Shown one piece after another: positions 5,020-58,825 of a stretch of 64,000 bases of DNA. The notes beneath the pieces were generated by a model, which saw only the letters and a list, made by a program, of their open reading frames with translations, made no database searches and was not told the DNA's origin. The stretch spans positions 30,134,001 to 30,198,000 of the forward strand of contig NC_087245.1 in NCBI RefSeq assembly GCF_037042905.1, given 5' to 3'. The DNA is from Lytechinus pictus. Its lineage: Eukaryota. Position 1 is the first letter of the stretch. Each line of letters begins with the position of its first letter. The position numbers were made by a program, and so were the translations under genes.

Positions 5020-6680
5020 TCCCACTTCAGGGGACTGTAGATGTTACCCCACTTTTTTTACGATTTTTGCCAATTTATTGGAAAACTCGCCATTTTGGAG
5101 CCCCCATTGAGGCAAAAAACGTGTTTCTGGTATATAGTAGAACCACTTCTTTATATGCTGCTGTTAGAGGAAAGCCTATTCTTTCCTCTCCAAGTAGTTT
5201 CAAGGCGGTAATATTGGCAGAACTATATATCAGATTCGCCTTTTTGCCTCAATGGGGGCTCCAAAATGGTGAATTTTCCAATAAATAAGCACTAATGAAA
5301 AAGGGGGTGATTTCAAAAGCCCTCTGATGGGGATAGGCTTTTATTTGCGAGCATGTCTTTATATGTAGCTGTTAAAGCAAAGCTTATTCCTTTTCTCTCC
5401 AAGTGTTTTCAAGGGTAAAAAACGGCAGAAACATAATCAGAAATTACTTTCTGCCTCAATGGGGGCTCAAAAGAGGTGATTTTTTTTTTCAATAAATAGG
5501 CAATAATGCAAAAGGGATGGGTGATTTCGACAGCCTCCTGGAGGGGAAGGGCTTTTATTTGCCTGCACTTCTTTATATGTGGCTGATAAAGCAAAACCTA
5601 TTATTTCCTCCCTAAGTGGTTTCAAGGCATTAAAAGTGGCAGAACTATATATCTGAAACGCCTTTTTGCCTCAATGAGAGCTCCAAAATGTTGAATTTCA
5701 AGGGGGGGGGGGGGGTAGATTTGACGGTCCCGTGAAGGAAGTAGCCTTTTATTCGCCTGCACTTCTTTATATGTGGCTGATAAAGCAAAACCTATTCTTT
5801 CCTCCCTAAGTGGTTTCAAGGCAGTAAAAGTGGCAGAACTATATATCTGAAACGCCTTTTTGCCTAAATGGGGGCTTCAAAATGGTGAATTTTTTAATAA
5901 ACATGCTATAATGCAAAAGGGATTGGGTGATTTCAACAGCTTCTCGGAGGGTGTAGGCTTTTCTTTGCCAGCACTTGTTTATATGTAGCTGATAGAGCAA
6001 AGCCTACTCTTTCCTCTCCAAGTCATTGCAAGAAAATAAAATTGGCTGTATGATATAGAAACGCCGTTATGCATCAATGGGTGATCCAAAATTGTGAAAT
6101 TTTCAATAAATAGGCAATATACATGGTATAGAGGAAGGTGTGACTTAGGTAGCCCCTGTGAGGGCGAGGGTTCGATGTGCTAGCGCTTATTTATGTAGCT
6201 GGTAGAACGAACTCTACTCTCTCAAAGCAATTAAATACTATAAAGCACAAACGCTTTTTGCCTCAATGATCGGTCCAAAATGGTGAATTTCCAAATAAAT
6301 TGGCAATAAGCAAAAGGGGGAGGGGTGAATTCCCCAGCACCCCCTCCCCCCCCCCCCCCGAGAGGGGTTGACTTCGATATACCTGCCACTTCTTTTGATG
6401 TAGCTGGTAGAACAACGCTTATTTTTTTTCTCTCCAAGTGGTTTCAAAGTAATTAAAGTGGCTGTACTGTTTAGCAGAAATGCCTTTTGCCTCAATGGGT
6501 GCTTCAAAAAATGGTGATTTTCAAATAAATAGGCAATATACAACAAAATGATATAGCCAAGTTGGGGGGGGGGGGGAGGCCCGACACCCCCACCACAGGA
6601 AAGTGCTAGGCCTTAATGTGCCAACATTTTGTTTTATGTGGCTGATAGAGAAAAACCTACTCTTAACTATCCAAGTGATT
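5020..6680 (+). repeat. Degenerate tandem array, ~180-190-bp unit
   Basis: Recurrent TTTTGCCTCAATGGGGGCTCCAAAATGGTGAATTT and CTTTATATGTAGCTGATAAAGCAAA motifs. The first ~130 bp are in the opposite orientation. Confidence 0.85.
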
Positions 6681-13190: not shown

Positions 13191-15391
13191 ATTACGTAAA
13201 AACCCCATTTGTGGCGACACTGCAGTTCGGATTGCAAACTGCGGTTTTAGACCCCATTTTTCATTTGAAAGTCTCATTTTGAACATTTCCAAGCCCCGAT
13301 AAACCCATCTTGGCCAGGTAATCCCCGTTGTCTCAATTTCACCTCCACAGGCCAGATTATGAGCGTTGAGCCAAGGAGGAAATGATAAACAACAGCTGTG
13401 CTATTTCGTAAGACTTCTCTGCCTGTAGTAGAACCTTCTGAATTAAATTATTGTATTCGATATTTAATCACGTTTTCAAAGGCATATTGTATTCAGAAAT
13501 TCAATGTTAGTCCATTTTTAATTTCGAACGAAAAAAATTGACCTCGAAATAAGGAAAGTAAGCGAATAGAAATGACGGCATGCTTACCGGCGGGTCCGCA
13601 CTCAGCGCTGCGCATGCACCCCATCGTGTGTGGCCCCCTGCTGTGACTGTGCCGAGCTGTTGTGTTATATTCGGACCGAGGTCAAGAAACAGGTGTTTTG
13701 ATACTTACATTGCATGGTTGGGGCAGTAGGGTTTGTCGTACTTTGAGAAGAGAATTTATTGCACGGGAAACTGGGGTATAGTGTTCTCAAATGGAGGTTT
13801 TTCGTCATATTTATGGAATACACGAGAATAAAAAAGGTAACTGATAAATGAACATTTGCAAGCGTGCAGCACGAGCCGAAAATATTAATGTTCAGATCGT
13901 AAAACTAACATTTTTTTTAAATCACTTTAAAACAATCAATTTGTAAATCAAACAAAAAAATGAAAGTTCGATTTCCGCGGCGAAATATCTTTTGCATATT
14001 GACTTCCAAATGTGATATTTAAGCTCCATATTGAACAAGATATGTAAATCAACTAACAGGCAATGCGAGCACGAAGTGCGAGCGAAAATTTTATATAGTG
14101 AATTATGAAAGATTCTTTTTACTTTCAAAGTCTTTCTCTTGTCGTCCTCTTCTTTTTTCTCTCTTTTCCCTGTTTTTTCTCCCCCCCCCCTTTTTTTCTC
14201 TTTTTTTTTGCTCCGCCAATAGGGGGGACCCAGGCCCCTCGCCCCCTGGATCCGCCTATGATATAAAGTGGCACAACAACTTGAATGGTAAAACCAAGCA
14301 AATGTCGGTGGAGCATTTGTCACCGGAGCAATCGTCGCCGGAGCATGTGTCATGGATTTAAATTGTCACGATGTGCTACCCTATCATGTGAACATAAAAT
14401 TGGGAATAAAAGAAATCTACGCCAGTATGAGTTATTTGTATTTATAGCATCATGCCTCTGAACGCCAAGAGTCTTGGCGTTCCATACATGTTGTATGTGT
14501 TGTGCACTTACGATGCTTTGTATTTTATGTTGAACGTTGACTCGGTCACGGTTGATTAAACTCATCCCAACCTATACTTGGATCGTCTGACGTTTCACTT
14601 TTCATGTTTTTGCGTGGTGTCATGCGGTGGTCATAACCTATTAAGCTGCCATTAATATAGACAGAGGTGAATCTCGCCCATAAACAAGGGATCAGGCGTT
14701 CCGTTGTAACTTACGGTGATAACCCAGGTATATTTTTCATGGATTGGGTAGGGTGGATAAGTGCAGTCCCATACATTGAGATGCACGTTGCGTCGACACA
14801 CAGATGCGCTTTAACCGTGGCCGGGCCGCGCGTTTCCGTTTTACACCCTGGCGAAGGCATTTTCCGGAAAAATAGCCACAAAGCGACTAGTGAAAAGTCT
14901 ACGTCTACGTTTGTTTACATACTATAATCAGCTGGGCGCGCGATCCAAAAGTCCGCACCGAAGATATCCGCAGAACATACGTGCAAATGCAGCTGAGCTT
15001 ATATAGACCAAAAGCTTCAGTCTCTGTATTTTGGTTGTTCCGCTGAACTATATACGTTGGTTTCATGATTTTTTTTTACTTTATCGCACATGATCGTTTG
15101 AATGAATGAAAACGAGTAATAGCTAAAATATTGAAAAATAAAACACATAATTACTTTTTTTCATATTATATCTATCCTTATATCTATCATATCTGTCTAT
15201 CCACTATCTATGTTATAAATCAATCTGGAACTACATGATATATCTATCTGTTAATTTGTCTATCTACTCTGTCTCTCTCATTCTCTATCTACCTATCTAT
15301 CTGTCTATCTATCTATCCATCTAACATCTATCTCTCAAATTCTCTATCTATCCATCTGTCTCTCTTTTATTTCTCTCTATCCATATATTAA

Positions 15392-15993
15392 AGGACAAGT
15401 CCACCCCAACAAAAACTTGATTTGAATAAAAAGAGAAAAATTCAATAAGCATAACACTGAAAAATTCATCAAAATCGGATGTAAAATAAGAAAGTTATGA
15501 CATTTTAAAGTTTCGCTTCATTTCACAAAACAGTTATATGCACATCTCAGTCAGTATGCAAATGAGGGAACTGATGACATCACTCACTCACTATTTCTTT
15601 TGTATTTTATTGTATGAAATATGAAATATTTTGATTTTCTCGTCATTGTCATGTGAAATGAAGTTTCATTTCTCCTTGAACACGTGGAATTCCATTATTT
15701 TTAACATTGTGTGCTTCAGGCAAGGAGGTCCTAATCGTCAAATTCGTAAAAATTGAAATATTGTATAATTCAAACAATAAAAAACAAAAGAAATAGTGAG
15801 TGAGTGACACCATCGACTCTCTCATTTGGATGTAACTGGCTTGTTCACATAACTATTTTGTTAAAAATAAGCAAAATTTGAAATGTCATAACTTGCTTAT
15901 TTTACATCCGATTTTGATGAAATTTTCAGCAATGTGCTTGTCTGATTTTTCTCTATTGATTCAAATCGAAATTTTTTGAGGTGGACTTGACCT
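15392..15993. mobile_element. Kolobok-like MITE (TTAA TSD)
   Basis: TTAA|AGGACAAGTCCACC ... GGTGGACTTGACCT|TTAA with long imperfect inverted arms. Confidence 0.85.
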
Positions 15994-16539
15994 TTAATCT
16001 ACTCGTGCAATATCAACACTGCTTCGACTTCTTTCGGGAGTCTATTTCCTCAGCTCTACTTTTCCCCTTTTTGTGCTCGATTCGATTCAATTACTACTTT
16101 ATTTACTTGTTACCATTGTTAAATGTCTTGTATTGCATAATGAGTTTTTTTTTCTCTGAAGGTTGCCTCCTATTCTCTTTAAAATTCCACCTCTTGCTTT
16201 CCCTTCTCTTTGTCTTATCCCAATTTCTTTCCCTTCTCTCACCTCTTTCCTCTTCTCTCTCCTCTTTCTTCTTAATCTTTCATTCCGCTTTTTTCTTCTT
16301 TGGTGACACTTTGTAGTACTTTTGGCGTTTTTGTATTCATTTATGATACATTTCTTTTTCATCTGCATGAATTTGTATTGTATTTGATATTTGTTTATAA
16401 TGTTTACTTTATATTTTGTTATGATTCTATTTGTATGTAAACATTCACTTATTTCAGTCTTTGACTGCTTGTGATTGCATTTTGATAGTTTTTATTGCAA
16501 TAAAATCCAATATATATATAAATATATATATATATATAT

Positions 16540-16616
16540 CTAAAATTCTCTAAAATTCTCTCTATCCATCTGTCTGTCTTTTTCTCTCTATCCGTCTATA
16601 TATCTATATCTATCTA

Positions 16617-16663
<47 letters not shown>

Positions 16664-17333
16664 ATGCAGTCTCTATCTATCTGTTAATTTGTCGCTCTTC
16701 TCTGTCTCTCTCATTCTTTATCTATCTAACATCTATCTATCTCTCAAATTCTCTATCTCTCTCTCCCCCTCTCTCTATTTATCTATCCATCTTTCTGTCT
16801 TTCTCTCTCTCTATCTATCTATCTTCTATCTATCTATTTATTTATCTATCTCTTTAATTATATCTCTATCTATCTATGTAACTACAGTATCTACAATGTA
16901 TCTATCTGTTAATCTTCTCTGTCTCTATATCTATCTAACATCTGCCTCTCTCTATCCCTCTCTCCCTCTATCTATCTCTCTATCTATCTCTCTATCTATA
17001 TATCTATCTATCTATCTATCTATCCATCTGTCTTGTTTTCTCTCTTTCTCTATTTCTCTTTTTCCGTCCATAATTATCTATCTATCTATAACATTTCTCC
17101 CTCTCTCAAGTTCTCTCCCCCATCTATCTATCTATCTATATATCTATCTATCTATCTATCTATTTATCTATCTATGTAACTACAGTATCTATCTATCTGT
17201 TAATTTGTCTTCGAATCTCTGTCTCTCTCATTCTATATCTAACATCTATCTATCTCTCAGATTCTCTATCTCCTCTAGGCTATCCATCTATCTGTCTTTT
17301 TTTTCTCTCTCTATTTCTCTTTATCCGTCCATA

Positions 17334-17364
<31 letters not shown>

Positions 17365-17419
17365 ATATCTATCTATCTATCCATCTATCCATCTCTCTGT
17401 CTTTCTCTCTCTCTCTACT

Positions 17420-17450
<31 letters not shown>

Positions 17451-17455
17451 GTCTG

Positions 17456-17501
<46 letters not shown>

Positions 17502-17525
17502 CATCTCTCTGTCTTTCTCTCTACT

Positions 17526-17556
<31 letters not shown>

Positions 17557-17591
17557 GACTATCTATCTATCTGTCTATCTATCTATCTATA

Positions 17592-17638
<47 letters not shown>

Positions 17639-17680
17639 GTCTCTATCTATTTATCAGTCTTCTATATCTATCTTTCGGCA
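16540..17680 (+). repeat. (CTAT)n/(CT)n compound microsatellite
   Basis: Directly visible. Source of the spurious 289-aa SIYL ORF. Confidence 0.95.
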
Positions 17681-18064
17681 TCTAAGTGTATCAATCCATC
17701 AAACTTCAATTTTCTTTCTATTATATGTATCTGTTTATTTTTATTTTGTCTGTCATTCTATTCATTTAGTTAATGATTTATATTTAGAAAAAAAAACTTG
17801 TTCATAACTTTTCATTAAAAAAAACGTAACTGCAAAAACATGTTCGGATTTCACTCATATGACTGCTCTCTACATGAAGTGCCGAGGAACTCTATGCTCT
17901 GATCAGTAACTGTGCAGATTGAATGCGGTGGTGTGGGACTCGCCTGTGTCGCACGCTGCAACCAGCGACGTGTGTAGACTCTTCACTAGTCGCTTTGTGG
18001 CTATTTTTGCGGAAAATGCCTTCGCCAGGGTGTAAAACGGAAACGCGCGGCCGGGCCTGCGGAT

Positions 18065-20014
18065 GTGTCAACACCCACGGGCACTGCGTCAAAGCAGCGA
18101 CGCGCTAATGGTCATAGCAGTAGGCCTTGGTTCCCTGCTGTGATTCAGGGATGTGATTTTGAACAAGCCTTGCGAATTGATGTCTTTAGTGCCTCCACAA
18201 TCAGTATGGTGAGGCAATCGACCGCTGACGACCTCGGTCTTGATATTGTTGTTGATGATTGTAATTTTGATGATTTTCAGTCCTATTTTGTTACCGCTGA
18301 TGTGGTCCTAGTACCGCAGTCATACATTATTGGCTTCAGCAGCTTCTATTTGATTCTTAATGGTTGTGAATTATTTTTTGACGGATTTGTTGTTACAGAT
18401 AACGTCATGGATTCCTATGGCAGAGATGTCCTAGTAGGTGCTCCTTTCATGGAATGCAATGACGTATTGATTAGACCATCCAAACGCTTGATCACTTTGG
18501 CGACTATGGCATCAGTTACTGGTTCCTATACCAGTGAGTGTGATCCAGCCTTTAGCGTGAATTGCATTGTTCCCAATATTGTCTGTGATCATTTGAGTCA
18601 TAGTGAGTGTGAACGTGGCTCCGTAATTGTAACCTCTCAGACAGTGAGTGCTGCTGCGAATGAGTATGCTGTTGTTGGTCTTACTCAAAGTGGGTGCGAA
18701 CATGACTCCGTAAGTGTAACATCTCAGACAGTGAGTATCGCTAGTGAGAATGCTAATGCTGATGTTGGTTCTGACCCTGTGGACACCCATTGTGCTGTCA
18801 TTTCAGAAGGAGATGTAAATGGTTGTGCAGATTATGGAAGTTCTGACGTGCACGATTACCCAGAGAGTCATAGGGCTTCAGTCCTTCAGACGAGTGAGAA
18901 TAAGGGTAATGTTGTTGATTGCTGTGTGACTCCTGATTCAGTCTGTCAAAGGTGTGAGAGTGATCATGATAGTAACAGCAATGATCGCAAACACTATGCA
19001 AGCCCAGACCCAGTCCTTTATGAGTTTGAGTGTTGTCATGTTGAGCAGTACATTAAACCAGATTCTATATTACCTGAGGATGATGGTGAGAGTATTAATG
19101 TAAAACAGAGTCCTGAATTCTCTGAGTCTGCTGAGATAGCATGTACTCAATTAGATAATCTGAGTGATGAGAGTGGTGGAGATAAGAATAATGTGAGTTG
19201 TGATGTTTACCATAATGTTGATCTCTCTTGTAAAGAGAACAGAGCTCAAGTCTTTGGTGATATCGGTTGCGATATTGCTGTTGGTAGTCAGGAGGATATT
19301 AGCAACAAACATGTGGTCTCGGTACTGAGCAGTGCTCTGGAATTTCCTGGTACAGTGGCTTTCGGTGATATCGGTTGCAATATTTCCACTGATAGTCGGG
19401 AAAACATTAGTGATGTGCATGTCCCGATACTGAGCTTTGCTCTGGAATTTCCTGGTACAGTGACTTCAAGTACTGAGCATAGCTCTGTAGTTCCAAAGTG
19501 CAGCGTCTATGATGATGAGTTTACGTGTACCCCTGGATTTGACCATTCGGTAGTTCTTCCTGTTACTCAGCAACTCATTGTTGGTCATCATTGCATTGAT
19601 GAGTATGCTGTCCAATCTCGGCGCGAATCTTACGTATCGTACCATAGCAATACCATAAATACTACGTTCGTATCCGATTTGTTTGTCCATAGCGATTCCG
19701 TCTACTCCGTGGCCATAATCGAGTTATGTGGCAATCATATCGATCGCAACTCAATCTCAATCGGTCACGTTATTGCTATCACTCCGTCCAGTCGTATTAG
19801 AGTTTGTGACGACGGCCGTTCGATGAGGGCACTTATCGCGATGCATCACCAGAAAAAGGATGCCAGTAAGAGAGTGTTGTACTCACCAGCACCTTATCGT
19901 TCCTCACCCGTGGAAATCTGCAGTAATAGCATCTTCCACCATGATTGCGTGCAGAATTGGGATACCTCAGCGATGCGACGTCGACCGTATCATTTCTCCA
20001 TCTTCGATGTCTAA
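18065..20014 (+). CDS. 649-aa ORF: degenerate Ty3/gypsy-type aspartic protease region plus acidic Ser/Cys/Val-rich extension; no RT, RNase H or integrase
   Basis: Stop-free 1950 bp. LRIDVFSASTISMVRQSTADDLGLDI and DVLVGAPFMECNDVLIRPSKRLITL resemble gypsy protease motifs, but the catalytic D-[ST]-G is lost. Two in-frame internal duplications. Confidence 0.6.
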   Translation: MSTPTGTASKQRRANGHSSRPWFPAVIQGCDFEQALRIDVFSASTISMVRQSTADDLGLDIVVDDCNFDDFQSYFVTADVVLVPQSYIIGFSSFYLILNGCELFFDGFVVTDNVMDSYGRDVLVGAPFMECNDVLIRPSKRLITLATMASVTGSYTSECDPAFSVNCIVPNIVCDHLSHSECERGSVIVTSQTVSAAANEYAVVGLTQSGCEHDSVSVTSQTVSIASENANADVGSDPVDTHCAVISEGDVNGCADYGSSDVHDYPESHRASVLQTSENKGNVVDCCVTPDSVCQRCESDHDSNSNDRKHYASPDPVLYEFECCHVEQYIKPDSILPEDDGESINVKQSPEFSESAEIACTQLDNLSDESGGDKNNVSCDVYHNVDLSCKENRAQVFGDIGCDIAVGSQEDISNKHVVSVLSSALEFPGTVAFGDIGCNISTDSRENISDVHVPILSFALEFPGTVTSSTEHSSVVPKCSVYDDEFTCTPGFDHSVVLPVTQQLIVGHHCIDEYAVQSRRESYVSYHSNTINTTFVSDLFVHSDSVYSVAIIELCGNHIDRNSISIGHVIAITPSSRIRVCDDGRSMRALIAMHHQKKDASKRVLYSPAPYRSSPVEICSNSIFHHDCVQNWDTSAMRRRPYHFSIFDV

Positions 20015-22608
20015 GCGTTGCCTCCATCCTCCAGGCAAGTTGACGCGCTAGATACAATCCCAAGTATCACTGAATCTCCAGCTTTGGACATATTCTCCTG
20101 CCTTCCTAGTTGGTATCCCCTGTGGATAATGTGAACTCTGTTGGCCAAAATATCCACACTTCTACCTACCTAGTCCCTTCACTGACTGACTGCTTGCTTG
20201 TGAATGGCACCTTTGATGATCTTGATCAGTCCTCCACACACGATGTCCCACAGTGTATGCCCTGTGACACTGGCTCTGAAGACCATCACTCCTGCCATAA
20301 TGGGAACCCAACCATCTGGACTCTTGGACCTCGCCCACCTTCATCTAGCTGGGTCCTTCTTCACGAGAGATCTCTGTATGCCTTGAGCTGGATCTATCTC
20401 ACCGAGCCTACGTGGGTTGTTCCGACGCCTGCCCTGGATGTTGCTGACATAGCTTACATGGACATACTCCACTCTTGTGTGCTATCAGACTTGTCCCCAT
20501 ACTGTTTGAGTTTATACTTAGTCGACAGCTCACATGGACTTATACCCATTCTTACATCACAGTCTACAATGAAGTTGGATTTTTATGGACTCATATTATC
20601 ATAATATTATGAACTTCATACACAGAGGAATGTTGTTTAATTATTTTGCTGGTCTTTAACATTTTAAACCTGTTTCACATTGGATTACTGATTACTCTTT
20701 TTTCATGATCTCTCATTTTTATTTATGCATGTCATAATGTGTATTACATGTTTTTTTTTATTGCTTATTGCTTTATATGTTTTAATTGCACCCCTTTACC
20801 TTGATTGTGCTGGATCGTGTTGATACTGCGCGAATATAATTTGCTTTCATATGTTTGGATTTTATTTACTTAGCATGTTAGCAGGTACTCATTACTCCCT
20901 TGATACATGTATGTCTACATCCATTGATAATAAGTTGGTATATATATATGCCCGATTAATGTTGTCCTGTGGCTTGTTTAGTACGACATTAAATTTGAGT
21001 AATTTGGTGTAATGTTGTACGTGCGTTTTCAGCTGTTGCTTACATTGTGATTGGTTGGTTGTTTATGGAATAGTGGGCCTATAGTAGTGTGAATGAATTT
21101 TGGGCTTCGTCTGCTACGTATGGGTTGATTGTTGTATTGTTGACCTTAAACTGTTTTTTTTTATGTTCACAATGTGTTGATTGCAATGTGTGCTGATGCG
21201 TGTTGTATTATTGGGATATTTATAATAATGGATATGGAAAAAATGAAATCAAGAAGAAATGTTTTTAGTTACAGTTGTTGGTAGTGTTTTACGCCTATTT
21301 TGTTTTATCCATACAATTATATGTGTGCTAAGTTTAGTATAGTGCGTCATGCTAAAAATGATGTCTATTTAATCTCTATACAAGGGCAAGTTTAGTATTA
21401 ATTTAATTTGCAAACATGTACGTGACTTACGTAACCTGTAAGTAATAATTGGGAAGTTATTATTAGGTGGTCTGTCTATGACAGATCACCTCTTAATTTC
21501 GTCAGAATTTTCTTTATTTTTATTATTTATTTTTAATGGCTACATATTTGTCGCCAAGATATCTCGAATTTGACTGTGTCGATTTAATTGAATTTCAAGG
21601 CATCTATAGGGTTTGTCATGGAAACGCCAAAATAAGCTTTTCAAGGTCATCAAGTCATGATGACGTCATCTAGACGCCATTTTGTAAAATCACATTACCA
21701 ATCATATCTCCATTATCAATTATCAAAAATCAATCAAATTCACATGACATTAACTTCAGATTAAGGGTCATCAGGTCATGTCATCAAAGGTCACTTAAAG
21801 GTCACGACGCGCGCGTCAAAATTTTAAAATGCTCAAAATCACTTTTTGACCAAAGTAGAGTACGTTTCAGGTCATTTAAACAAAAATTCAAAAATTTGCG
21901 CGTGCAAACGTATGCGCGCGCGTTTCCGCGCGTAACGCCTTAACGCAACTCAGAAACACCGTTTTTTATATATCATTGCATTGATAATATAATTTTGAGC
22001 AATTTGATACCTTGATCAACCTTCTACGACCATTAATAAGGAAATTAACATATATCATATTTTGATAGAGTATGAATTAGAGATATAATTTCATGTCTCA
22101 TTTGACCCTCAATTATATTATGACGTCATCAAAATGGCGTCGGAAGTCAAAATATCAATTTTGCGTGTTATGACGTCATTGTAATTATGCAAATTTGGCT
22201 CTAACTCCGTGAATATTGATCAAATTTCGCCCAATTTTGTTCTATGATGTAGCTTAGGTCTTACTCTTTCTGAATCATTGCCTTTATTTTTCATTTTGAT
22301 AAATAGATCATCCTCAAAAATTGCAAATGATAAAGGCATGTCATTTTTACTCATTTTGCGTGTAATCTCTATGGGACATGACTTTTTCTCAAAACTAGAT
22401 TCTACATTCTTCTATTTCGTAAGCCATATCTCCAATATTTGTTGCCAGTTATTCCTGAGCTTTTAGTATGTAGTAACTGAGATTCTAAGCTTTCGGTAGT
22501 GTTCACTTCATTTGCCGATCAGATGCCGGGATCATGCCCGTATTTCACTTGCAAGATTGGATATGAGATTCTCGTGTTTTGCTTACGTGTAAAGCCTTTG
22601 GGAAATAT

Positions 22609-22685
22609 TCTAGCTCAATCGGTTAGGCGTCAGACTTGCTTCTCATTCCATCATGCGGGCAGGGGTTCGAGTCCGCGGGTGAACA
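22609..22685 (+). promoter_or_regulatory. tRNA-like Pol III promoter remnant (A and B boxes)
   Basis: TAGCTCAATCGGTTAGGCGTCAGAC ... GGTTCGAGTCC. No convincing acceptor stem. Confidence 0.55.
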
Positions 22686-23023
22686 TGATTTTTTTTTTAA
22701 GCTAAAGCTATCTTGCCTACGATCAGTTATAAGAATTCTAATAAATGATAGCTAAAATATTGCAAAATAAAACAGATTATAATTACTTTTTTTGATATTA
22801 TATCTATCTATCTGTCTGTCTATCTACCTACATGACATATCTATCTCTCTGTCTAATATATATATATATATATATCTGTTTGAATATGTCCCTCTCTCTC
22901 TATCTATCCATATGTCTGTCTATCTACCTACATTGTATATCTATCTGTCTATCTATCTCTCTCTATCTGTCTAATATATACTATCTGTTTAGATATGTCT
23001 ATCTATCCATCTATCTGCCTGTC

Positions 23024-23068
<45 letters not shown>

Positions 23069-23243
23069 ATGACTGTCTCTCTACTTATCTATATGTCTGT
23101 CTCTCTATCTATCTCTGTCTATCAATTTATATGTCTGTCTCTGTATCTATCTATATGTCTATCTATCTATATATCTATCTATCTATATGTCTGTCTATCT
23201 ATCTATATTTCTGTCTCTCTGTCTATATGTCTGTCTATCTATC

Positions 23244-23275
<32 letters not shown>

Positions 23276-23477
23276 TATATATATGTCTGTCTATCTATAT
23301 ATATGTCTGTCTCTAATCCCGTACTAAAGGTGGGGTTAGCCCACTTTGCAAAAATGCTGTGTAAAAAGAAAGTGGGCTAAGCTTAACCCCGTACTATAGG
23401 TGGGGCTAAATGGCAATTTAGCCCCACCTATAGTACGGGGTTAAGGAAATTTTAGCGTGTGTAAAAAGGGTAATATA

Positions 23478-24026
23478 CCCTTTTTACACACGCTAAAATT
23501 TCCTTAACCCCGTACTATAGGTGGGGCTAAATTGCCATTTAGCCCCACCTATAGTACGGGGTTAAGCTTAGCCCACTTTCTTTTTACACAGCATTTTTGC
23601 AAAGTGGGCTAACCCCACCTTTAGTACGGGATTATTTGGCCCTGCAAAAAAGCAGGGTTATCCCAGCAATTGCGGTGCTAAGAGCGATAGTACGGGGTTA
23701 AGATCGCTAGTGTAAAACGAAAGTGGGCTAAGCTTAACCCCGTATTATAGGTGGGGCCAAATGGCAATTTGGCCCCACCTATAGTACGGGGTTAAGGAAA
23801 TTGTAGCGTGTGTAAAATGGTACGAGTGAAGTACTTGTACTACGAATGGTCGACAAAAACCACTAGTCCGGGGTTAGCGAGTTTCGTGTGTGAAAAGCAA
23901 GCATTCCTTATCCGGGGTTAGCAAAAACAATTTGGCATGTGTAAAAAGGAAAAAAAATAGTACGGGGTTAAGGATAGTACGGGGTTAGCGATAGTCCGGG
24001 GTTAAGAAAATCCTGTGTAAAAAGGG
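23478..24026. mobile_element. MITE with CCCTTTTTACAC TIR and TA flanks
   Basis: TA|CCCTTTTTACAC ... GTGTAAAAAGGG|TA. Internal TAGTACGGGGTTA repeats and hairpins. Confidence 0.8.
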
Positions 24027-24154
24027 TATATATGTCTGTCTCTCTATCTATATATATGTCTGTCTATCTATATATCTGTCTGTCTCTCTTTCTATCTATA
24101 TGTTTATCTATGTTTTATTAATACAACCACCTATCATCTCTCTATCTATCTATA

Positions 24155-24953
24155 CAGTGCGTCCCACAAAAAACGAAACCGAGATTTATCGATGATTTAT
24201 CATAACTAAATCACAAATACAATAGACAAATGACCTACCATTTTAAAGCTTAGAATCTCCTCTTTCATCTGAAATTACTTAGATTATTTTTCATTCACGC
24301 ATGAGTGAGCAAAAACAATTTGAAAAGGGGATACCAAAAAGTCACTTGGCACGCCGTATCTGGGTTTAAAAAAGTTCAATATCTGCTCTTTAATTTGATA
24401 CCTTAATTACAGAAAATGGTAAAGAAATAACAAAGTTCTGGTTATTTGAAATAAGGCTTGATTTTCAATAATTTCAGAAAATGAAGAGGTTTTACAGGCT
24501 AGCGTTCAAACTCACTCGACACTCCGTTTTGTTGACGATCAGCCATGCATGAAGTCTTTTGTTACCGTGCGATAGCTTCTGTGGGAAACCGGGGAAAACA
24601 CATTTATTTAATGAAATTATGGAAATACAAGCATTGTTTCGAGGGATCATAACTTTTTTACTTCTTGACCATTTTCTGTGATTAAGGTATCAAAGAAAAG
24701 AGCAGATATTGAAATTTTTAGTCATGTGATTTTCTTTTTGAAATTCAGATACCCCCCGCCAAATGAGTTTTTGGCATCCTTTCTTCGAATTGTTTTTGCT
24801 CACTCATGCGTGAATAAGGAATAATCTAAGTAATACCAGATGAAAGAAGAGACTCTAAGCTATACATTGATAGGTCATTTGTCTATTTTATTTATGACGA
24901 AGTTACGATAAATCATCGCTAAATCTCGGTTTCGTTTTTTCTGGGACGCACTG
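24155..24953. mobile_element. Tc1/mariner-type MITE
   Basis: TA|CAGTGCGTCCCACAAAAAACGAAACCGAGATTT ... AAATCTCGGTTTCGTTTTTTCTGGGACGCACTG|TA with long inverted arms. Confidence 0.9.
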
Positions 24954-24959
24954 TATATA

Positions 24960-27046
24960 CACAACAAAAAAGGAAGTCCCCCCTAAATCAAATTGCTGTA
25001 ACTTTTGAACCGAACTATTTTGAGATATGATATTCCATAGGTGGTTTTCTACACTCATTAAGCAACTCCTGGGAAAATATGAGCTTTAAGATCGGTTGAG
25101 TCATGCATGAGTAATTAAAGATTGAATTAAAAATGACAATTTTTTAAAGTTACAATAGTCGTTTTTCAGTTTGTTCAAATACAAAGTTGGGCAAAAGTTG
25201 TTTTTAGGTGAATTTTATGATGTTATGCTGTTTTACGATCCATCATTCAACCACTTCAGACCAGATTTTTATATCGGATGTTCATGGTTGAGTGAGCACA
25301 ATGTATTGCAGGGGCTACGGAAGCGGGGGGATGGGCTTCAGCCCCCCATTTTTTCCCCAAAAGCATGTACAAAAATGTAAAAATGACCATACGAGTGTGA
25401 TTTTTTTTTGCATGGTCAGCCCCCCCCCTCACTTTTGGCTCTGTCCCCCCCTCTACTTTGAAAACTGTTCCGGGGCCCCTGTATTGTGACGTATCATCAT
25501 AGGGGTTTATGGTAGTATCCTTTACAACTTGTTAGATCATGTTAAAATGTGAAAATGTTGGTGGCTCCCCCGATTATAGGCCCCTCCCCCATTTTAAAGT
25601 TCTGCATGGATCCACCACTGATTTGTCCATACATTCAACTGATTCTGAGAAATTCTTAAAAAAATAATACATTTATGCAGTATAAAGAGTATTCATTTCT
25701 AAGTTTTCAATTGTGCTCGTTCAACCATGAAAATGTTCAAAGTTCGGAATGTGTGTGGTGATAGAATTGATGGATGATAAAAACAACAGCAAATAAAGCC
25801 ACATTTGAAACCAAATTTGCCCCCAATATTCACTTTATTACCCTTTAAAATGAGTCTGTGACATTGAAAATACCAATTTTCCCACTTTGATGCGTGCTCA
25901 CTCATCCATAAATAAACAAATCGATTTCATTTTTGCACAGAATTTGGCCCATAGGTTGATAAACATTACTGTCAAACGACATTGCTAAAGACAGCCTTGA
26001 AAAAAAGTTCCACCATATTGAATAAGGGGTTACCTATTCTTAAACATATGCACCCATAATGTACACAAGTCTATGAGAGAGGAAGTCAAAATTTTAACAA
26101 ATATGAAATGAGGGTTTGTTTCATGGACGATTTTTTTTACTTCTGCCAACAATTATTTCATGAAACTTTGCACATCGCTTCAGAGTAACACTATCCAAAA
26201 GGCGCGCACACCAAAATAACAATTTGATACGGCACAGAGTGGGGCCAAGGCCTTGAACTTTCTTCTCATTTGCATAATTTTCGAGTATTGTGTGTTCACT
26301 GATGCATTAAACATCGGGATTTTCATAAAAATCAAATCAAATGAACTATGCAAGGAGGTTTGTGACGGATATCAATAGTTACAAAGTGCATTTTTTCCAA
26401 TAACGCAAAAAAGAGCTAATCACATTCCACATGTTCATTCAAGCGTGAATGTTTAATTAAACGCCTTTGAATCATTGGAGCATGTTAATTGATCATGAAC
26501 ACAACGAAAAAGTTGAGAAAATATCATTTTCATTTACCAAAATAAAACAATACTTGCCTATGATATTTGAAAATCGTATTTATTGTTTTCAATAACCGTG
26601 AAACGATGAATACTGTTGAAGAAACTCTTCCCCAAAATAACTGTCATCATATTCTATCATTTTTATTGAAAGAAATGTGTAAAAAATCCAGTTATAGCAA
26701 ATTTTGACTTGTGTTTATTCAACCGTGAAATTTAGCCAAAAAAGTTGTATCGTCTTTTAGAAAGTACCTTTTACAAGCCTTCAGACTATTTTTCATGATG
26801 AGAATGTGGAATTAGTTCCAATAAAATGGAATTGAAGTCATGATATTTGGCTTGTGACTTTTGAAAAGTGACATTTTAGCCTTCTGTTGGTGCTCACTGA
26901 AGCATGACGTAAAATATGTCCATAACATTTACTTAGAGGGTAGCTTATGAAATTACCTACACGCTTATGTAAAAATATATTAAAATCTCGCATTGGTTCG
27001 GAAATTATTGATGTTTGTTTAAGGGGGGACGTATTTTTTTGTTGTG
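24960..27046. mobile_element. Non-autonomous TIR element (CAC...GTG, TA flanks)
   Basis: CACAACAAAAAAGGAAGTCCCCCCTAAA vs TTTAAGGGGGGACGTATTTTTTTGTTGTG. No ORF. Confidence 0.7.
25309..25481. mobile_element. Short CAGGGGC...GCCCCTG element with 5-bp TSD
   Basis: TATTG on both sides (25304-25308, 25482-25486). Related inverted copy at ~52713-52848. Confidence 0.65.
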
Positions 27047-27065
27047 TATATATATATATCTATCA

Positions 27066-27111
<46 letters not shown>

Positions 27112-28263
27112 ATGTCTGTCTCTCTTTTATCTATATGTCTGTCTCTCTATCTATATATCTGTCTCTCTATCTATCTATATGTCTATGTTTTATTAATATA
27201 ACCACCTATAATTTATCTCTCCATCCATCACTCCATCCATCTATATATATAATTATCTTTCTGTTTGATTATGTAAATCTGTTTGTCTATCTATTTTTCA
27301 ATATAATATCTGTTTAAATCTATCTATACGACAGACCACCTAATTCGTCCGCATGACGAATTAAAATCTAGTTTACATGTAGTTTTATGATTTGTTTATT
27401 ATAGTTGAGATGAGAGAAAAGGTCCTTATATAGAATCGTTACCGCCGATCATCAGTTCACATTGTTTTTGTAATATTTTGATTATACATATATCATATAC
27501 ATGTAAGTCAGTGTTGCTAAGTTTGATAACCACTGGAAGGAAAGTGTAGAAGGGTCGTACAGAAGTTAATTTATGATACTTTTAAAGGTTTTGGTATTAC
27601 TTTTGTAAGTAACAATTGTTTACAATAGTTGGGTTTTTACTGGTTGTTATGACCTGCTGGTGTAAAAAAAAAAATTATTTGTACGTTAGAAATTTGATAG
27701 TTTTAGTATGCCTAAAATTTATCGGTTTTATATTGTGCAGCTGTGTGTAGATCAGGCTGTTTGGTATACACTAGCTACTAATGATCGAATATTCTTGTCA
27801 CTGAGTTTTATTGGTCATTTTTCAGGATACGTAATTATTTTATAATATTTGATTGTTAATTTTTATGCAAATGTTTAAACACACAATTTCCAACGTACAG
27901 TATATGTTAAGGTTGTTTGGAAAAAATACATTGTTACGGTCATTACTTATATGCATTTTCCTACATGAGTTAATGTCGCTTGTAAACGATAACGTTGTTA
28001 AGTTTACTCATACTGGTTTGATTTTATTTCAGGCATCTGTTGTTCTTGTGCATACATTTTCATGAGAAGAGAAAATGAGTCACGCCAGTATGAGTTATTT
28101 TATATTTATAGCATCATGCCTCTTGGCGTTCTATACATGTTGTATGTGTTGTGCGCTTACGATGCTTTGTATTTTATGTTGAACGTTGACTCGGTCACGG
28201 TTGATTAAACTCATCCCAACCTATACTTGGATCGTCTGACGTTTCACTTTTTATGTTCTTGCG

Positions 28264-28915
28264 CTACCTGTCTTCAATTTTTTTTCTATGTAATTAAAAA
28301 AAAAAAATCATCATTGTGGACCTAATCCCTTTTGCAAGCAAACTGAAATGAATCCAATCTCTTTTTATTAAAAGAATGCTTTTTCTTTGCCACTTTCATT
28401 CACGTTTTCATTTGAATTTCAAATTGTCTTTGGAATCATCAAAGTGACTAAAAATTAAGAGGTTTAGAGACAGAAAGCAACAAAATTTATGAAAAATGGA
28501 TGTAACCCATTTTGAAAAATGAGTTGTTCGGAAGAGTTTAGTTCCAAAAGGGGTTAGGTCCACTCGAAGAATATAATTTTTTTTATTCTCCCATAATGCA
28601 ATATTCTTACGTGAAACTGAATTTTTATGATACCCTACAATGAGAACATGAAATTGGGTATATGAGAAATCGACCTGTCTTCATAGTTTTTAACATATTC
28701 TTTTCCCAAAAAAAATCTGTGTGGACCTAACCCCTTTTGCAACTAAACTGAAATGGACCTAACCCCTTTGAAAAAAGGTTATTTTTCTTTGCCATTTTAA
28801 TTCACTTTTTAATAGGAATTTCATCTTTTCTTTAGTATCATCTTATAGAGCTACTAAAAATCTATTCAACATAAAAATCAAATTTGATGAAAAATGGACC
28901 TAACCCCTTTTGCAA
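28264..28915. repeat. Repeat element with recurrent GGACCTAACCCCTTTTGCAA motif (host of the MULE-like and LTR-like insertions)
   Basis: Motif at ~28318, 28547 (inverted), 28723, 28755 and 28896. Contiguous with 9760-9862 and 14368-14420 once the insertions are removed. Confidence 0.7.
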
Positions 28916-30123
28916 GTGAGCTCTTCATAAACACGTTTCTTGCTCTCAGCTGAATGGTAAGATACGCTAACTTTGATTTTAACACTATAGACATGTAATG
29001 CCATATGAAGAAAAAGTAAAGATTGGTAGCCTAACCCCCCCCCCGGGCTGGGGGAGGGGGGGGGGGGGTAGTCAAATGTATCGATGTACACATGCGTGAC
29101 CAAATTATTTTCAAACACCCCCTGGACGAGTTTTTCTCTTTGTGCGAAATAACCCCCTAAACAAGTTTTGCGCGGGCTTCATTTGCACATTTTGGCCCCT
29201 AAACAAGTTGTCGCCAGAATATGACGCTGAAAAACAAGTTTTGGCCACTTGCTAACAAGTATAAGCTTAGATAAACAAAACTACATTCATGTGTATTGCA
29301 TGCCCCCAGTGCAGTTAAGGTTAAAATATCACAATCGGGAAGAACCCGAACACTTCTCAGAAACGACGAGGAAAAATCCCTGGGGAAAAATACCCTAAAT
29401 ACGGTTAGACCCCGCGATTTACCAGTCTTTCAAAACCACTTTTTTTTTTGGGGGGGGGGGGGGAAATTGGTGTTGGTGTCACGCGAAATTTTTTGACCGC
29501 GCCACTCTCTGACTTTTTACTTTCAAGTCTCGCGCAACTTTTGAGACCAATTTAGTCCAGTCATTTTAGCCCAAATTTTGACCAAAATTGGAACAAATTT
29601 CCACATAATTTTTTTCACCACAATACATTTCTGTGAGGGCCCTAGTACAACATACTAAAAGTCCCAAACTATCCCAATAGGGGAAAGGCATCTAATTTGC
29701 ATAAACCCAAGATGGCTGCCAAAATTAATTGATATGCCTTATTCTTAATATTTTTGTACAGGTAATGGAAAATCTCGAAATGAATACACTATTCACTATG
29801 ATTAAGATACTCGAAATCGATTGCAATCATTTTCGGGACTGTCCGGTTAATAATTTTCGAAAAATGAGAGAATTTATGCCAAAATTTCCATGTTTTCGGT
29901 CTAAAATTTGCATGTGCGTTGATATATTTCTGTTTTATCATTAGCATCAACAACTAATGCAAAATATCAGCATTCGACAAGAAAGGGGATATATCAACGA
30001 GAAAACTGATATGCTTCATAACAGTATTAATGTCTTTACTTGCTTAGATTAAAAACAAGTACATCCGATTGTATTAGTCGATATTGCAGTAAAGTGACAC
30101 CAAAAATCAACCTCCGTGTCTTA

Positions 30124-31269: not shown

Positions 31270-32750
31270 GTTTAACTATTAAAATTATATGGTTTTTAGA
31301 GCCCCCAATGTGACAAAGTGGTATTTTGCTACAGAGAAAAACAACTTTTATTGTCTTGAAATCACTTGGAAGCAAAAGAGTAGGCTTTTCTCTTTCAGTT
31401 ACATATAAAGAAGTGATGGCACTGCAAATTCTGCCGAAGGCACCAACCCCTTTTTGTATTTTGCCCATTTCTCGGAAAATTCGCCTCTTTAGCCCCATTG
31501 AGACAAAAGGCATTTCCCCCTTTGCAGTAAACCACTTTAATTGTTTTGTAAGCACGATGAAAAAGAAAAATATTTCCTCTATCCGCTAAATATAAAAAAG
31601 TGCTGGCACAGCAAAGCCTATCCCCTGCTGGGTTTGCCAAAGTCACTCACCCCTTTTCCATATTTTGCCAATTTATGGAAAAAGCTGTAAATCCGGAGCC
31701 CTCAATGAGGCAAAAAAGGGTCCTACTATAGTGTAAGCCACTTTTATTGTTTTAAAACCATTTGGAAACGAAAGAGTAGCCTTTCCTCTATCTGCTTCGT
31801 AAAAGAAGTGCTGGCATATCGAAGCCTACATCCTTTAGGGGGCTGTCGAAATCACCCCACCCCTTTTGCGTATTTTGCCCATTTCTTGGAAAATTTGTCA
31901 CTTTGGAGCCCCATTGATGTAAAAGGCGTTTCCCCTTTTGCAGTAGACCACTGTTATTGTTTTGTAACCACTTGGAGATAACAAAATAAGATTTTCCTCC
32001 ATCAGCTACCTACAAAGAAGTGCTTGCACAGCGAACCCTACCTCTCAGGGTTTTGCCGAAGTCACCCACCCCTTTTCCATATTTTTCCAATTTATGGAAA
32101 AAATCTACCAATCCGGAGCCCCCAATGATGCCAAAAATTTTTCTGATATATAGCAAACCACTATCATTGTTCCGTAACCTCTTAGAGATAAAATAGTAGA
32201 TTTTCCTCTATCAGCTGCATATAAAGATGTGCTGGCCCAGCAGAGCCTACCCCCACATGCAGGCGGATTCCCGAAATCTCCCCACCCTTTTTGCCTATTT
32301 TCCCTCCTTATTAATTTTTAATTCATGGGGGGGGGTCTGGCAATTTGGAGCCTTTATTTAAGCAAAACGTAGATTCTGCTCTTTAGCAAACCTCTATCAT
32401 TATTTCGTAACCACTTGGAGATAGAAATTAGAGTAGATTTTCCTCTATCTGCTACATATATCGAAGTGCTGGCTCAGCAAAGCCTACCCCCTCGGGGGTT
32501 CCCGAAGTCTCCCCACCCTTTTTGCCTATTTTCCCATTTTATCAAAACAAAATCGCAGTTTTTGCCCCCCTCCCCTATTCAGGCAAAAGGCATTTCTGTT
32601 ATATGGTAAAGTCACTTTTCTTATTTGGAACCACTTAAAAATGAATAGGTTTTGTCTATCAGCGCATCGACCCCTACCCTCTTCAGGGGCTCCAAACTGG
32701 CAGGTTTTCCCCCACAAATTGGCAAAATACGGAAAAGGGGTGAGTGACTT
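31270..32750 (-). repeat. Second array of the ~185-bp tandem family, inverted relative to 5150-6680
   Basis: Recurrent GGAGCCCCATTGAGGCAAAA, the reverse complement of the 5-6.7 kb motif. Confidence 0.8.
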
Positions 32751-37237: not shown

Positions 37238-37260
37238 TATATATATATATATATATATAT

Positions 37261-38075
37261 AGTGCGTCCCAGAATAAACGAAACCGAGATTTAGCGATGA
37301 TTTATCATAACTTAATCATAAATACAATATACAAATGTCCTATCAATGTAAAGCTTAGAATCTCCTCTTTCATCTGATATTACTTAGATTATTTTTCATT
37401 CACGCATGAGTGAGCAAAAACAATTTGAATAAAGGATACCAAAAACTCATTTGGCGGGGGGTATCTGAATTTCAAAAAGAAAATCACATGCCTAAAAAGT
37501 TCAATATCTGCTCATTCAATTGATACCTTAATCACAAAAAATGGTCCAGAAGTAAAAAAGTTATGTTCCCTCGAAACAAAGCTTGTATTTCCATACTTTC
37601 ATTAAATAAACTTGTTTTCACCGGTTTCCCACAGAAGCTTTCGCTCGGTTAACAAAAGACTTAGTGCATGGCTGATCTTCAACAAAACGGAGTGTCGAGT
37701 GAGTTTGAACGCTAGCCTGTAAAACCTCTTCATTCTATGAAATTATTGAAATTCAAGCCTTATTTCAAATAACCAGAACTTTCTTATTTCTTGACCATTT
37801 TCTGTAATTGAGGTATCAAATTAAAGAGCAGATATTGAATTTTTAGAAAATGTGTTTTTTGTTTTGAAACCCAGATACAGCCCGCCAAATGACTTTTCGT
37901 TATCCCCTCTTCAAATTGTTTTTGCTCACTCATGCGTGAATGAAAAATGATCTAAGTAATTCCAGATGAAAGAGGAGATTCTAAGCTTTACAATGGTAGG
38001 TCATTTGTCTATTGTATTTGTGATTAAGTTATGATAAATTATTGATAAATCTCGGTTTCGTTTTTTGTGGGACGC
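37261..38075. mobile_element. Second copy of the Tc1/mariner MITE (inverted relative to 24155-24953), ends eroded
   Basis: AGTGCGTCCCAGAATAAACGAAACCGAG ... CTCGGTTTCGTTTTTTGTGGGACGCA, flanked by (TA)n. Confidence 0.85.
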
Positions 38076-38083
38076 AAAATAAT

Positions 38084-42599: not shown

Positions 42600-42916
42600 G
42601 TGAAGTTAGTTACTTATTCCTTATTCCTTATTCAAAATGTGAAGTTAGTTACTTATTCCTTATTGCTTATTCAAAATGTGAAGTTAGTTACTTATTCCTT
42701 ATTCCTTATTCAAAATGTGGAGTTATTTACTTGTTACTTATTCAAAATACGTAGCTACTTATTCGAAATACGTAGTTACTTATTCGAAATACGTAGTTAC
42801 TCGAAAAATGTATTTTACTTTGTTTATGATACCAATATGATATAGGTAGTTACTTATTCGAAATACGTAGTTACTTATTTGAATTACGTAGTTACTTATT
42901 TGAGATACGTAGTTAC
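42600..42916 (+). repeat. 21-bp minisatellite (TTATTCGAAATACGTAGTTAC) and related units; continues at 54892-54930 and 58826-59180
   Basis: Directly visible tandem units, split by two large insertions. Confidence 0.9.
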
Positions 42917-52854: not shown

Positions 52855-53312
52855 CGCATACATTCGTAATTCCGAAGCTTCATTATTTCGAAGGTTCAGA
52901 TATTCCGAAGGTTTGATATAATGAAGGTTCGTATTTCCGAAGGTTCATGATTCCGAAGGATCGTTAATCCGGAAATGAAATGAGGTTCGTAATTCCGAAG
53001 GTTCGTTAGTCCGAATACTAAATGATTAACGAACCTTATTGTGTTTTAGGACAAACGAACCTTCGGAACAACGAACCTTATTTCGTTTTCGGATTAACGA
53101 ACCTTCGGAACAACGAACCTTATTTCGTTTTCGGATTAACGAACCTTCGGAACATCGAACCTTATTTCGTTTTCGGATTATCGAACTTTCGGAATAACGA
53201 ACATTCGGAATAACGCCACAAATGTTCGGATTAACGAACCCTTTTACGTTTTCGGATTAACGAACATCGAGGTATAGGCAATTTGCGTGTTTCGGAATTA
53301 CGAAGTGTAACC
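52855..53312. repeat. TTCGGATTAACGAACC minisatellite-bearing element
   Basis: Tandem units arranged as an internal inversion. Second copy at ~59678-60091. Confidence 0.8.
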
Positions 53313-57900: not shown

Positions 57901-58825
57901 GTTCTGATCGATGCGGTCAAATGCTTTGCTAAAGTCAGTTAGTATCAATGTAGATACCGGTTTTGGTTTATCCGAGTTCAGGCACAGATGGTGAAGGAGG
58001 TCAACAATACAATGGACCGTAGATAGACCTTTCCTGTTTCCAAATTGTTGAGAGTCAAGATACGGATTCATATCCTGCATTGTCCATTTAGCAATGAAGC
58101 TCTCTGCTACCTTGGCGAATTGATCCGTCAGGGAGATTGGTCGGATCACTTCAAGTGTAGCAGGGGTTGACTTCGGAACTGGCACGACAGTAGCTCGCTT
58201 CCACTGCCAAGGGACGCAGCTGCTTATATATTTTGAGTTAAGAATCTTCGTCAACGGCACACACAATTCTAGAGCAAACTCTTGTATCAGGCGTCCAGAT
58301 ATTCCATCTGGGCCACAAGCTTTAGAAGGGTTAACAGCTTTGAGTTCTCTGAAAACTTCCCATGGCTCTAGCAACGGGCATGGACGTGCAGGTAAGTATG
58401 AAGGTAACTTGGTTCTGTCTAAAGGGAGGATGTCGCTGGCAACACCAATGAAGTATTCGTTAATTCTATTCGCGATGGCAACGTGATCATCATTGTCCAT
58501 ATCTGGTATGTTGATCCTGATGCCTTGTTGTTTACCAGTCGTCATATTGCGTATCATATTGAGTAATATAAACGTTTGGCATCTTTTATCTCCCGTTTTA
58601 TCTTGTTGCTCCAGAGAGTATCATTTCCATCACTGAATGCCACTTTACGTATCATCGCTTTGATTTCCGGATTCATCCACGGTTTGTCGGCTATATGACA
58701 CTTGACAGAACGAACAGGAAAATATGTGTCAATTGCAGTATTAAGCGTAGTGTAAAAAATGTTACACTGCTCACTGGTGTCATCTGATTGATTCAGTTCG
58801 GTCCAGTCGTGTTCACCCAACCATC
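54931..58825 (-). mobile_element. 5'-truncated, decayed CR1/L2-type LINE (RT) with an internal insertion
   Basis: ORF fragments 58554-58820, 57772-58557, 57308-57808 and 55835-56116 with KACGPDGI, RPISLT, QQFG, DFSKAFD, GVPQGTKLGP and YVDD. (ATCT)n tail near 54931-54947. Probable TSD TACTTGTTCGAAATACGTAGTTA. Confidence 0.9.
56375..56815 (+). repeat. 66-bp and 37-bp tandem repeats within the sequence interrupting the LINE
   Basis: About 2.4 copies of a 66-bp unit (56375-56530) and about 6 copies of GTACAGAGTACCGAGAGTACGCGATGCACGATGACAA. Confidence 0.85.

Follow-up and report, generated by a model that had tools for sequence, protein, structure and literature searches.

Troyka is a group of long terminal repeat (LTR) elements said to have been reported in Repbase Reports in 2008. 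Here we analyze a 64,000-nucleotide stretch of the Lytechinus pictus genome (NC_087245.1, positions 30,134,001 to 30,198,000, forward strand; the whole stretch is called the window below), where a first-pass annotation had marked positions 14420–28263 as an LTR-like element with unusual ends. We conclude with high confidence that this is a single insertion of a non-autonomous Troyka element (Kuafuortervirus), that its target was a high-copy host repeat, and that two nested transposons later expanded it from about 4.7 to 13.8 kb.

Troyka LTRs have CG...CG ends and are flanked by 3-bp duplications (Kojima 2025, PMC12440569). According to the same study, they are 100–400 bp long, and 573 of 603 start with CGCCA. 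The usual end is TGGCG; TTGCG is found in eight LTRs, six of them from one sea-urchin lineage. The internal parts span 1,553–7,691 bp, and sea urchins are the source of 62 of the 70 non-autonomous elements. The Kuafuorterviruses of Gong and Han (2024, PMC11673190), as presented in the accessible part of that paper, include the Repbase Troyka elements, carry the reverse transcriptase (RT) motif IADD, VADD or LADD, and were recovered by LTRharvest with default settings. Several entries in the accessible part of its supplement, judged by eye, begin a few bases before the CGCC-type end, and the element boundaries therefore look mis-set. The expectation of the first-pass annotation that structure-based finders would miss such an element thus does not hold as regards detection and does hold, apparently, as regards boundaries. 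Six example elements from this supplement were compared by eye using their 400-letter heads. In three of them TGGTG(G/A)CAGC comes immediately after TGGCG; the remaining three are reversed, with a purine run as well as a short spacer and CGCCA. When a fish Kuafuortervirus from the same accessible material is read from its reverse strand, its AGTCA spacer and its opening 10 LTR bases are identical by eye to those of the window.

Termini and target site

The features that define the boundaries of the insertion are as follows.

14359–14419, plus strand: left part of the high-copy host repeat that served as the target (high contig depth, many contig starts at 14359; paralog near 28630–28670)
14417–14419, plus strand: target-site duplication CTA, left copy, 3 bp (boundary reading; empty-site continuation)
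14420–14614, plus strand: 5' LTR, 195 nt, CGCCA...TTGCG, with 14 extra nt (repeat comparison)
14615–14630, plus strand: putative primer-binding site, a variant of the TGGTGGCAGC site of autonomous relatives (sequence comparison)
28064–28075, plus strand: polypurine tract; next comes a spacer of 7 nt with TCA as its last bases (sequence reading)
28083–28263, plus strand: 3' LTR, 181 nt, CGCCA...TTGCG (repeat comparison)
28264–28266, plus strand: target-site duplication CTA, right copy, followed by the remaining host repeat (boundary reading; empty site)

Repeat comparison within the window confirmed the near-identical direct repeats of 195 and 181 bp described in the first-pass annotation. Both start with CGCCAGTATG, which occurs in the window twice, at 14420 and 28083, and both end with TTGCG, at 14614 and 28263. 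They differ by five transitions and by gaps of 14 nt and 1 nt (Kimura two-parameter distance 0.029). The 5' LTR contains a TATA-like motif at 14439 and ATTAAA at 14555. Four readings of the termini and the duplication are common to both copies, and in one of them, CTA–CGCCA...TTGCG–CTA, the ends are inverted complements. As this is the only symmetric reading of the four, the ends are best read as CG...CG with the 3-bp duplication CTA. The atypical ends and the duplication noted previously are thus retained, with (C)GC...GCG resolved to CG...CG and CTA(C) to CTA. The CGCCA start and the listed end variant TTGCG are present in both LTRs, and the TG...CA termini and 4–6-bp duplication of canonical Gypsy, Copia or BEL elements are absent.

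Contigs from four public runs (X1, X5, X6 and X14) were compared with the window; 32 of 5,189 records are listed, and contig depth is not a copy number. None of the 20 listed runs holds half of the sampled words, so the read evidence comes from relatives or other haplotypes. Contigs tracking the host repeat up to 14420 and then reading CTGTCTTC, the sequence to the right of the element in the window, are found in three of the four runs (94, X1; 47, X5; 76, X6); no such continuation is present among the rows listed for X14. Since these contigs join the left flank to the sequence right of the element, the whole 13.8 kb is one insertion. A paralogous repeat at about 28630–28930 aligns with both flanks of the element, in order. 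The earlier proposal that removal of the element restores the host repeat is borne out by the empty-site contigs and by this paralog.

The PBS-like site and the purine tract proposed earlier are both in place. The primer-site-like sequence TGGTGTCA adjoins the 5' LTR with zero spacer. It begins with TGG and resembles the sites of the autonomous relatives, and its match to a tRNA is putative, the likeness being perhaps to tRNA-Leu. ARAGORN found no tRNA genes in the window. The purine run GAGAAGAGAAAA, 12 nt long, occupies 28064–28075 and lies 7 nt upstream of the 3' LTR. One X14 record (depth 3.35) bridges the LTR end, the primer site and the leader by the 31-letter rule, and two further records cross the same junction with a shorter overlap; no difference is listed at 14610–14622 for the records crossing the LTR end. 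Two other records, about 87–89% alike, stop matching at 14613–14614 and continue with more than 250 unlike letters, as expected of 3' or solo LTRs.

An 11-bp hairpin at 14458–14483, within which CGCCA and TGGCG occur, is completed by the 14 bases that the 5' LTR has in excess. In four of the contigs listed the match starts at 14472–14474, which suggests that other copies have the short LTR form and that the extra bases arose in the 5' LTR of the window.

Nested insertions

Two transposons lie within the element:

14828–18048, strand unassigned: nested DNA transposon of non-autonomous type (terminal inverted repeats of 75 bp, which match at 73 positions)
about 21461–27372, strand unassigned: nested Helentron-type (HINE/DINE-1-like) insertion (repeat structure; the ends are deduced and approximate)

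Together they account for about 9.1 kb of the 13.8 kb. These insertions and the coding frame described below had been overlooked in the first-pass annotation. Without the insertions the element is about 4.7 kb long and its internal part about 4.3 kb, given the approximate ends of the second insertion; this length and the LTR lengths of 195 and 181 nt fall within the Troyka ranges.

The first transposon is flanked by a 9-bp duplication (14819–14827 and 18049–18057), by the length of which it is presumably Mutator-like. It holds a TCTA microsatellite and a miniature inverted-repeat transposable element (MITE). In all four runs low-depth contigs track the leader up to 14827 and then run on unlike the window, hence other copies do not have this insertion; very-high-depth contigs begin near 14828. 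The second insertion carries subterminal inverted repeats, 12 bp long, at 21465 and 27330, an inner inverted copy at 21480, a 3' stem-loop, a TATC microsatellite and further MITEs. This structure corresponds to that of the Helentron-derived HINEs, as given in the accessible part of PMC4067079.

Autonomous relatives

Metagenome contigs were scanned with a pattern derived from the protein family of the element itself (see below). Out of 335 pattern matches, nine loci were retained when the protease-like domain was aligned. Four of the nine have one continuous Gag-Pol frame of 1,642–1,658 amino acids (aa), seven a CX2CX8-9HX4C finger (the Gag finger that marks the group is CX2CX8-10HX4C), and six the RT motif LADD or VADD. 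At five loci the LTR end CG is directly followed by TGGTGGCAGC, and at two there is an LTR complete from CGCCA to CG (206 and 189 nt), with a purine run and a CA-ending spacer in front of it. Among six autonomous frames scanned with Pfam, RT and protease families were found in all six, RNase H in five and integrase in three. Two loci, L064 and L065, are short or broken and have none of the Troyka motifs. Autonomous elements with RT and integrase, which the first-pass annotation had suggested looking for as partners, were found as Troyka-like loci in metagenome contigs.

The proteins of these relatives were compared with the window by tblastn. Inside the element matches occur only at 18164–18571 (7 of 10 query pieces, E from 5e-12 to 3e-04); two weak matches (E 0.09 and 0.39) fall outside it. 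By this comparison the element contains nothing recognizable as gag, RT, RNase H or integrase, and it therefore needs a helper. It has no single Gag-Pol comprising a protease, an RT, an RNase H and an integrase, and homology to Troyka Gag-Pol is confined to the protease-like domain, which is 27–37% identical to the proteases of seven elements with Troyka hallmarks. Candidate RT/integrase remnants seen by eye at 19900–20400 were rejected, as the search with autonomous Pol was negative and the stretch matches the tail of the protein family instead.

Other sequence collections were also searched. In viral contigs the junction motif occurs at 56 loci, which were taken as chance because none matches Troyka Pol at E 1e-5; none of the 19 candidates found there with the family pattern was confirmed. 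In prokaryote genomes one 17-residue match was rejected as chance.

Several observations on these loci deserve mention. Remnants of a broken protease-like sequence in L064 (18–170) and L065 (2773–2862) share the AGAPFME motif with the non-autonomous family and may be further relatives. In L057 and L063 the contig ends overlap (by 350 and 127 nt) and each contains a whole autonomous Troyka with one LTR; these are either collapsed assemblies of multicopy elements or one-LTR circles. A short CA-ending spacer separates the purine tract from the LTR in the window (28076–28083), L057 (6050–6055) and L063 (5198–5203). The primer site opens with TG after the opposite LTR end, so the terminal symmetry extends to CA-CG...CG-TG, which may bear on the processing of Troyka DNA ends.

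The protease-like gene

Four parts of one coding sequence were recognized:

14781–14827, plus strand: N-terminal piece with the family start motif (tblastn with P0013 residues 1–15, 81% identity, E 0.02)
18058–20014, plus strand: long stop-free frame with a protease-like domain followed by an acidic low-complexity middle (open reading frame; shuffle test)
18125–18502, plus strand: retropepsin-fold domain without the catalytic Asp, codon 18185–18187 being Phe (homology, structure model)
20266–20487, plus strand: C-terminal part of the same protein family, in another frame (profile and tblastn)

The frame 17990–20014 is stop-free over 674 codons, the longest run in 1000 shuffles being 219 codons. 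A profile of eight family tails matches 20266–20487 with E 5.9e-08, the best of 2744 segments, and tblastn with P0003 matches there with E 8e-04. As the start motif is separated from the rest and the tail lies in another frame, the gene is broken in the window copy by the first nested insertion and again near 20014. To judge from the sequences, the source element would have carried one long gene with a catalytically dead retropepsin domain and a long low-complexity tail. In the leader, a 7-letter insertion relative to the window is seen at 14639 in three of the four runs. The ATG at 14739 is altered in all four, which makes 14781 the likelier start codon.

A HMMER scan yielded 31 relatives with E ≤0.001, 17 of them with E ≤1e-10, the best-matching stretches lying in the N-terminal domain. 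Fifteen of the 31 are at least 600 aa long and 16 are shorter; the long members have about 700 aa, and in cluster 1 five of seven members have 705–715 aa. Ten relatives were looked up and four carry names, all "uncharacterized": one from Lytechinus variegatus, two from L. pictus and one from Diadema setosum (XP_041466289, XP_063953772, XP_063954867 and XP_072168684). The structure model of the window domain has a retropepsin fold (mean pLDDT 78.9), and its best Foldseek matches are the retroviral-protease-like domains of Ddi1 (E 3.6e-07). The top Atlas match belongs to retropepsin families (0.93) with low shared counts and is used only as a lead.

The catalytic Asp-Thr/Ser-Gly is present neither in the window nor in the family. 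Nine of the 31 members do not contain the catalytic region and were left out of the count. In the remaining 22 the catalytic position is never Asp (Arg in 13, Lys in 4, His in 3, Ser in 1 and Cys in 1) and the following Ser-Gly is kept in all; the same position is Asp in all seven autonomous relatives. Conservation was measured in 14 of the 15 long members (P0030 was dropped, as the motif was not found in it). Mean identity over 91 pairs is 47% in the domain, 20% in the next 150 residues (19% in shuffled sequences) and 29% in the last 100 (23% in shuffled ones).

The long frame of the window matched no Pfam family, and 30 of the 31 relatives scanned showed no relevant one. Word-based protein searches gave no match for the whole frame, nor, among longer proteins, for the protease region and the family alignment; these are weak negatives. 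A sequence search of solved structures gave 0 matches. When the window domain was modelled in a complex with the protease of an autonomous element as a stand-in, the score was 0.71 (control 0.60), which is not used as evidence in either direction.

Comparison with described elements

Mammalian MaLR elements are retrovirus-related, helper-dependent LTR elements with TG...CA ends and one retained non-enzymatic, Gag-like frame. The element of the window is like them in helper dependence and in having a single frame, and unlike them in its ends and in the nature of the frame. TR-GAG of plants (PMC4350172, accessible part) is also a non-autonomous LTR element with a single open frame; it is Copia-related and retains Gag, whereas the element studied here has no Gag match and retains a protease-derived domain.

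With the non-autonomous sea-urchin Troyka elements of Kojima (PMC12440569) it shares CG...CG ends, the CGCCA start, the TTGCG end, the 3-bp duplication, lengths in range and the absence of a functional Gag-Pol. The main text of that paper contains no frame of about 700 aa with a dead protease, no primer sites and no purine tracts; its supplements may describe these. The Kuafuorterviruses (PMC11673190) are resembled by the autonomous relatives retrieved here, which have the LADD or VADD motif and the order protease, RT, RNase H, integrase; the primer site adjoins the LTR, as it does in three of the six supplement entries, those in sense orientation. The Kuafuorterviruses differ in being defined by the RT phylogeny of autonomous 5–6 kb elements, whereas the window copy has no RT.

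Alternative explanations

The first-pass annotation had proposed a retroelement family with an atypical end specificity of its own. One LTR insertion with atypical ends is indeed present, and it is true that the ends are not TG...CA and that no named Repbase entry has been matched to the family of the window, Repbase and the supplements of PMC12440569 lying outside the comparison. However, the ends, the duplication length, the LTR size, the geometry of the primer site and the protease homology each fit Troyka, so that an undescribed family is largely refuted by the published signature and we regard it as extremely unlikely. Even less probable is a scenario in which a dispersed repeat, in this case a short one, inserted twice independently, as considered in that annotation, or in which the copies are a pair of solo LTRs, with an unrelated interior. 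The interior does consist mostly of other repeats, and a 14-nt indel separates the copies; nevertheless, the pair is bracketed by one duplication, the host repeat resumes exactly across 13.8 kb, the empty site seen in three of four runs refutes this scenario, the primer site and the purine tract lie on the inner sides, and a sense-oriented coding remnant of Troyka type lies between them. DIRS/Ngaro elements were dropped in view of the simple LTR pair, the primer site, the purine tract and the protease homology.

Some points weigh against a Troyka insertion as described here. The element appears to have no RT and hence would have no place in the RT tree that defines Troyka. The apparent kinship of the proteases comes from a comparison without a Gypsy outgroup, and the metagenome pattern was derived from the family. 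The 31 relatives are known as protein sequences, and their location in Troyka elements is presumptive. The autonomous relatives are metagenome loci, and no helper from the same host was found. At the single site read, a 4-bp duplication CTAC with asymmetric ends is formally possible. The end structure and the duplication were read at the window copy alone, the listed records covering the 5' end of no other copy, and the bridging contig has a depth of only 3.35, with 32 of 5,189 records listed. Finally, the window domain departs from the family at three conserved places, with Phe in place of a basic residue, Ala in place of an invariant Gly and Ser in place of an Asn found in 92%; the window copy or its subfamily may therefore be decaying.

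As to the gene, we lean towards a protein that selection maintains because it serves the spread of the Troyka element itself, for instance through binding to the particle or the protease of the helper, and that is broken in the window copy. It is doubtful that the long frame is a decaying gag-pol remnant of an internal deletion with no present function. This would agree with the absence of RT, RNase H or integrase matches and with the window copy being interrupted twice and departing from the family motif; moreover, protein libraries list open frames only, which inflates intactness, and 16 of the 31 relatives are shorter than 600 aa. On the other hand, many clusters at the 50% identity level keep about 700 open codons while the middle is at the shuffle level and the domain at 47%; the catalytic position is Asp in none of 22 members and basic (Arg, Lys or His) in 20 of them, and Ser-Gly follows in all 22; the named members span Lytechinus and Diadema, with five of the seven members of cluster 1 at 705–715 aa; and the tail has no match to autonomous Pol by tblastn. 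A host-domesticated pseudo-protease or restriction factor acting against autonomous Troyka is less probable still. Annotations of sea-urchin genomes list four members, known as proteins only, among the host's "uncharacterized proteins"; yet the element that houses the window gene is young (LTR distance 0.029), the gene was disrupted around the time of the insertion or later, and many divergent clusters with several near-identical members resemble mobile families rather than one orthologous gene. Some other role for the protein is very unlikely.

Proposed mechanism and significance

Following known LTR biology, RNA of the non-autonomous Troyka would be transcribed from the 5' LTR and packaged by an autonomous Troyka. 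Reverse transcription would be primed by a tRNA at the site adjoining the LTR and from the purine tract, and the helper integrase would then insert the element, joining the CG-3' ends with a 3-base stagger.

Retropepsins are dimers, with one Asp coming from each half, and engineered trans-dominant retroviral protease monomers provide a parallel. We tentatively consider it possible, though less likely than not, that the sea-urchin non-autonomous Troyka elements are protein-coding parasites, whose retropepsin domain with a basic residue in place of Asp pairs with a half-site of the helper protease without cutting. Such pairing would carry the parasite RNA into the helper particle, or would throttle helper maturation as a natural trans-dominant protease inhibitor. 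In the literature searched we found no description of this satellite strategy for LTR elements and no usable precedent for a trans-dominant protease. The substitution D25K has been used to inactivate HIV protease (PMC1865004, accessible part), which shows no more than that. Nor was a dead-protease gene in non-autonomous LTR elements described in the literature searched, with most subscription papers, and also Repbase and the supplements of PMC12440569, outside the search.

In its ends and duplication this element is a further case of a group known from descriptions of 2008, 2024 and 2025, and unusual ends of this kind are known. What appears to be added is the gene for a conserved, catalytically dead protease domain. 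A dead retropepsin in which a basic residue is conserved at the catalytic position, and whose frame stays open in divergent families from at least two sea-urchin genera, is a candidate for exploitation or restraint of the helper. Among the sea-urchin genes that public annotations list as "uncharacterized", some probably belong to transposons. A handle on how Troyka ends are made is offered by the shared spacer, TCA or CCA, ahead of the 3' LTR and by the direct contact of the primer site with the LTR; PMC12440569 and the accessible part of PMC11673190 contain no discussion of how the ends are made from this arrangement.

Other repeats in the window

Within the HINE-like element, a near-perfect 321-bp palindrome with internal inverted repeats at 23314–24031 represents a foldback-type insertion. 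Rfam gave 15 matches, all under the gathering score and all on the palindromic and simple-repeat stretch 23219–23799. The segment 22590–22690 is tRNA-like by eye and possibly the head of a SINE (short interspersed element), with no ARAGORN or Rfam report there. Two adjoining MITE-like insertions, 24155–24957 and about 24960–27046, have inverted ends and TA-rich sites; the former has a paralog at 37248–38076.

Outside the Troyka insertion, a foldback element of 2.9 kb occupies 38927–41813; its inverted arms are long and consist of short, GC-rich repeat units. Two overlapping frames on the minus strand at 57308–58620 match Pfam RVT_1 (E 7e-10 and 8e-08) and probably belong to a broken element of LINE (long interspersed element) type, unrelated to the Troyka insertion. 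Minisatellite arrays with periods of 21, 42, 71, 101 and about 200 bp are found at 42600–42916, 54875–54931 and 58826–59183; 53028–53202 and 59774–59945; 43047–43513; 54306–54770; 5144–6119; and 31432–32101. Some of them recur at distant places, and they are probably carried by non-autonomous elements.

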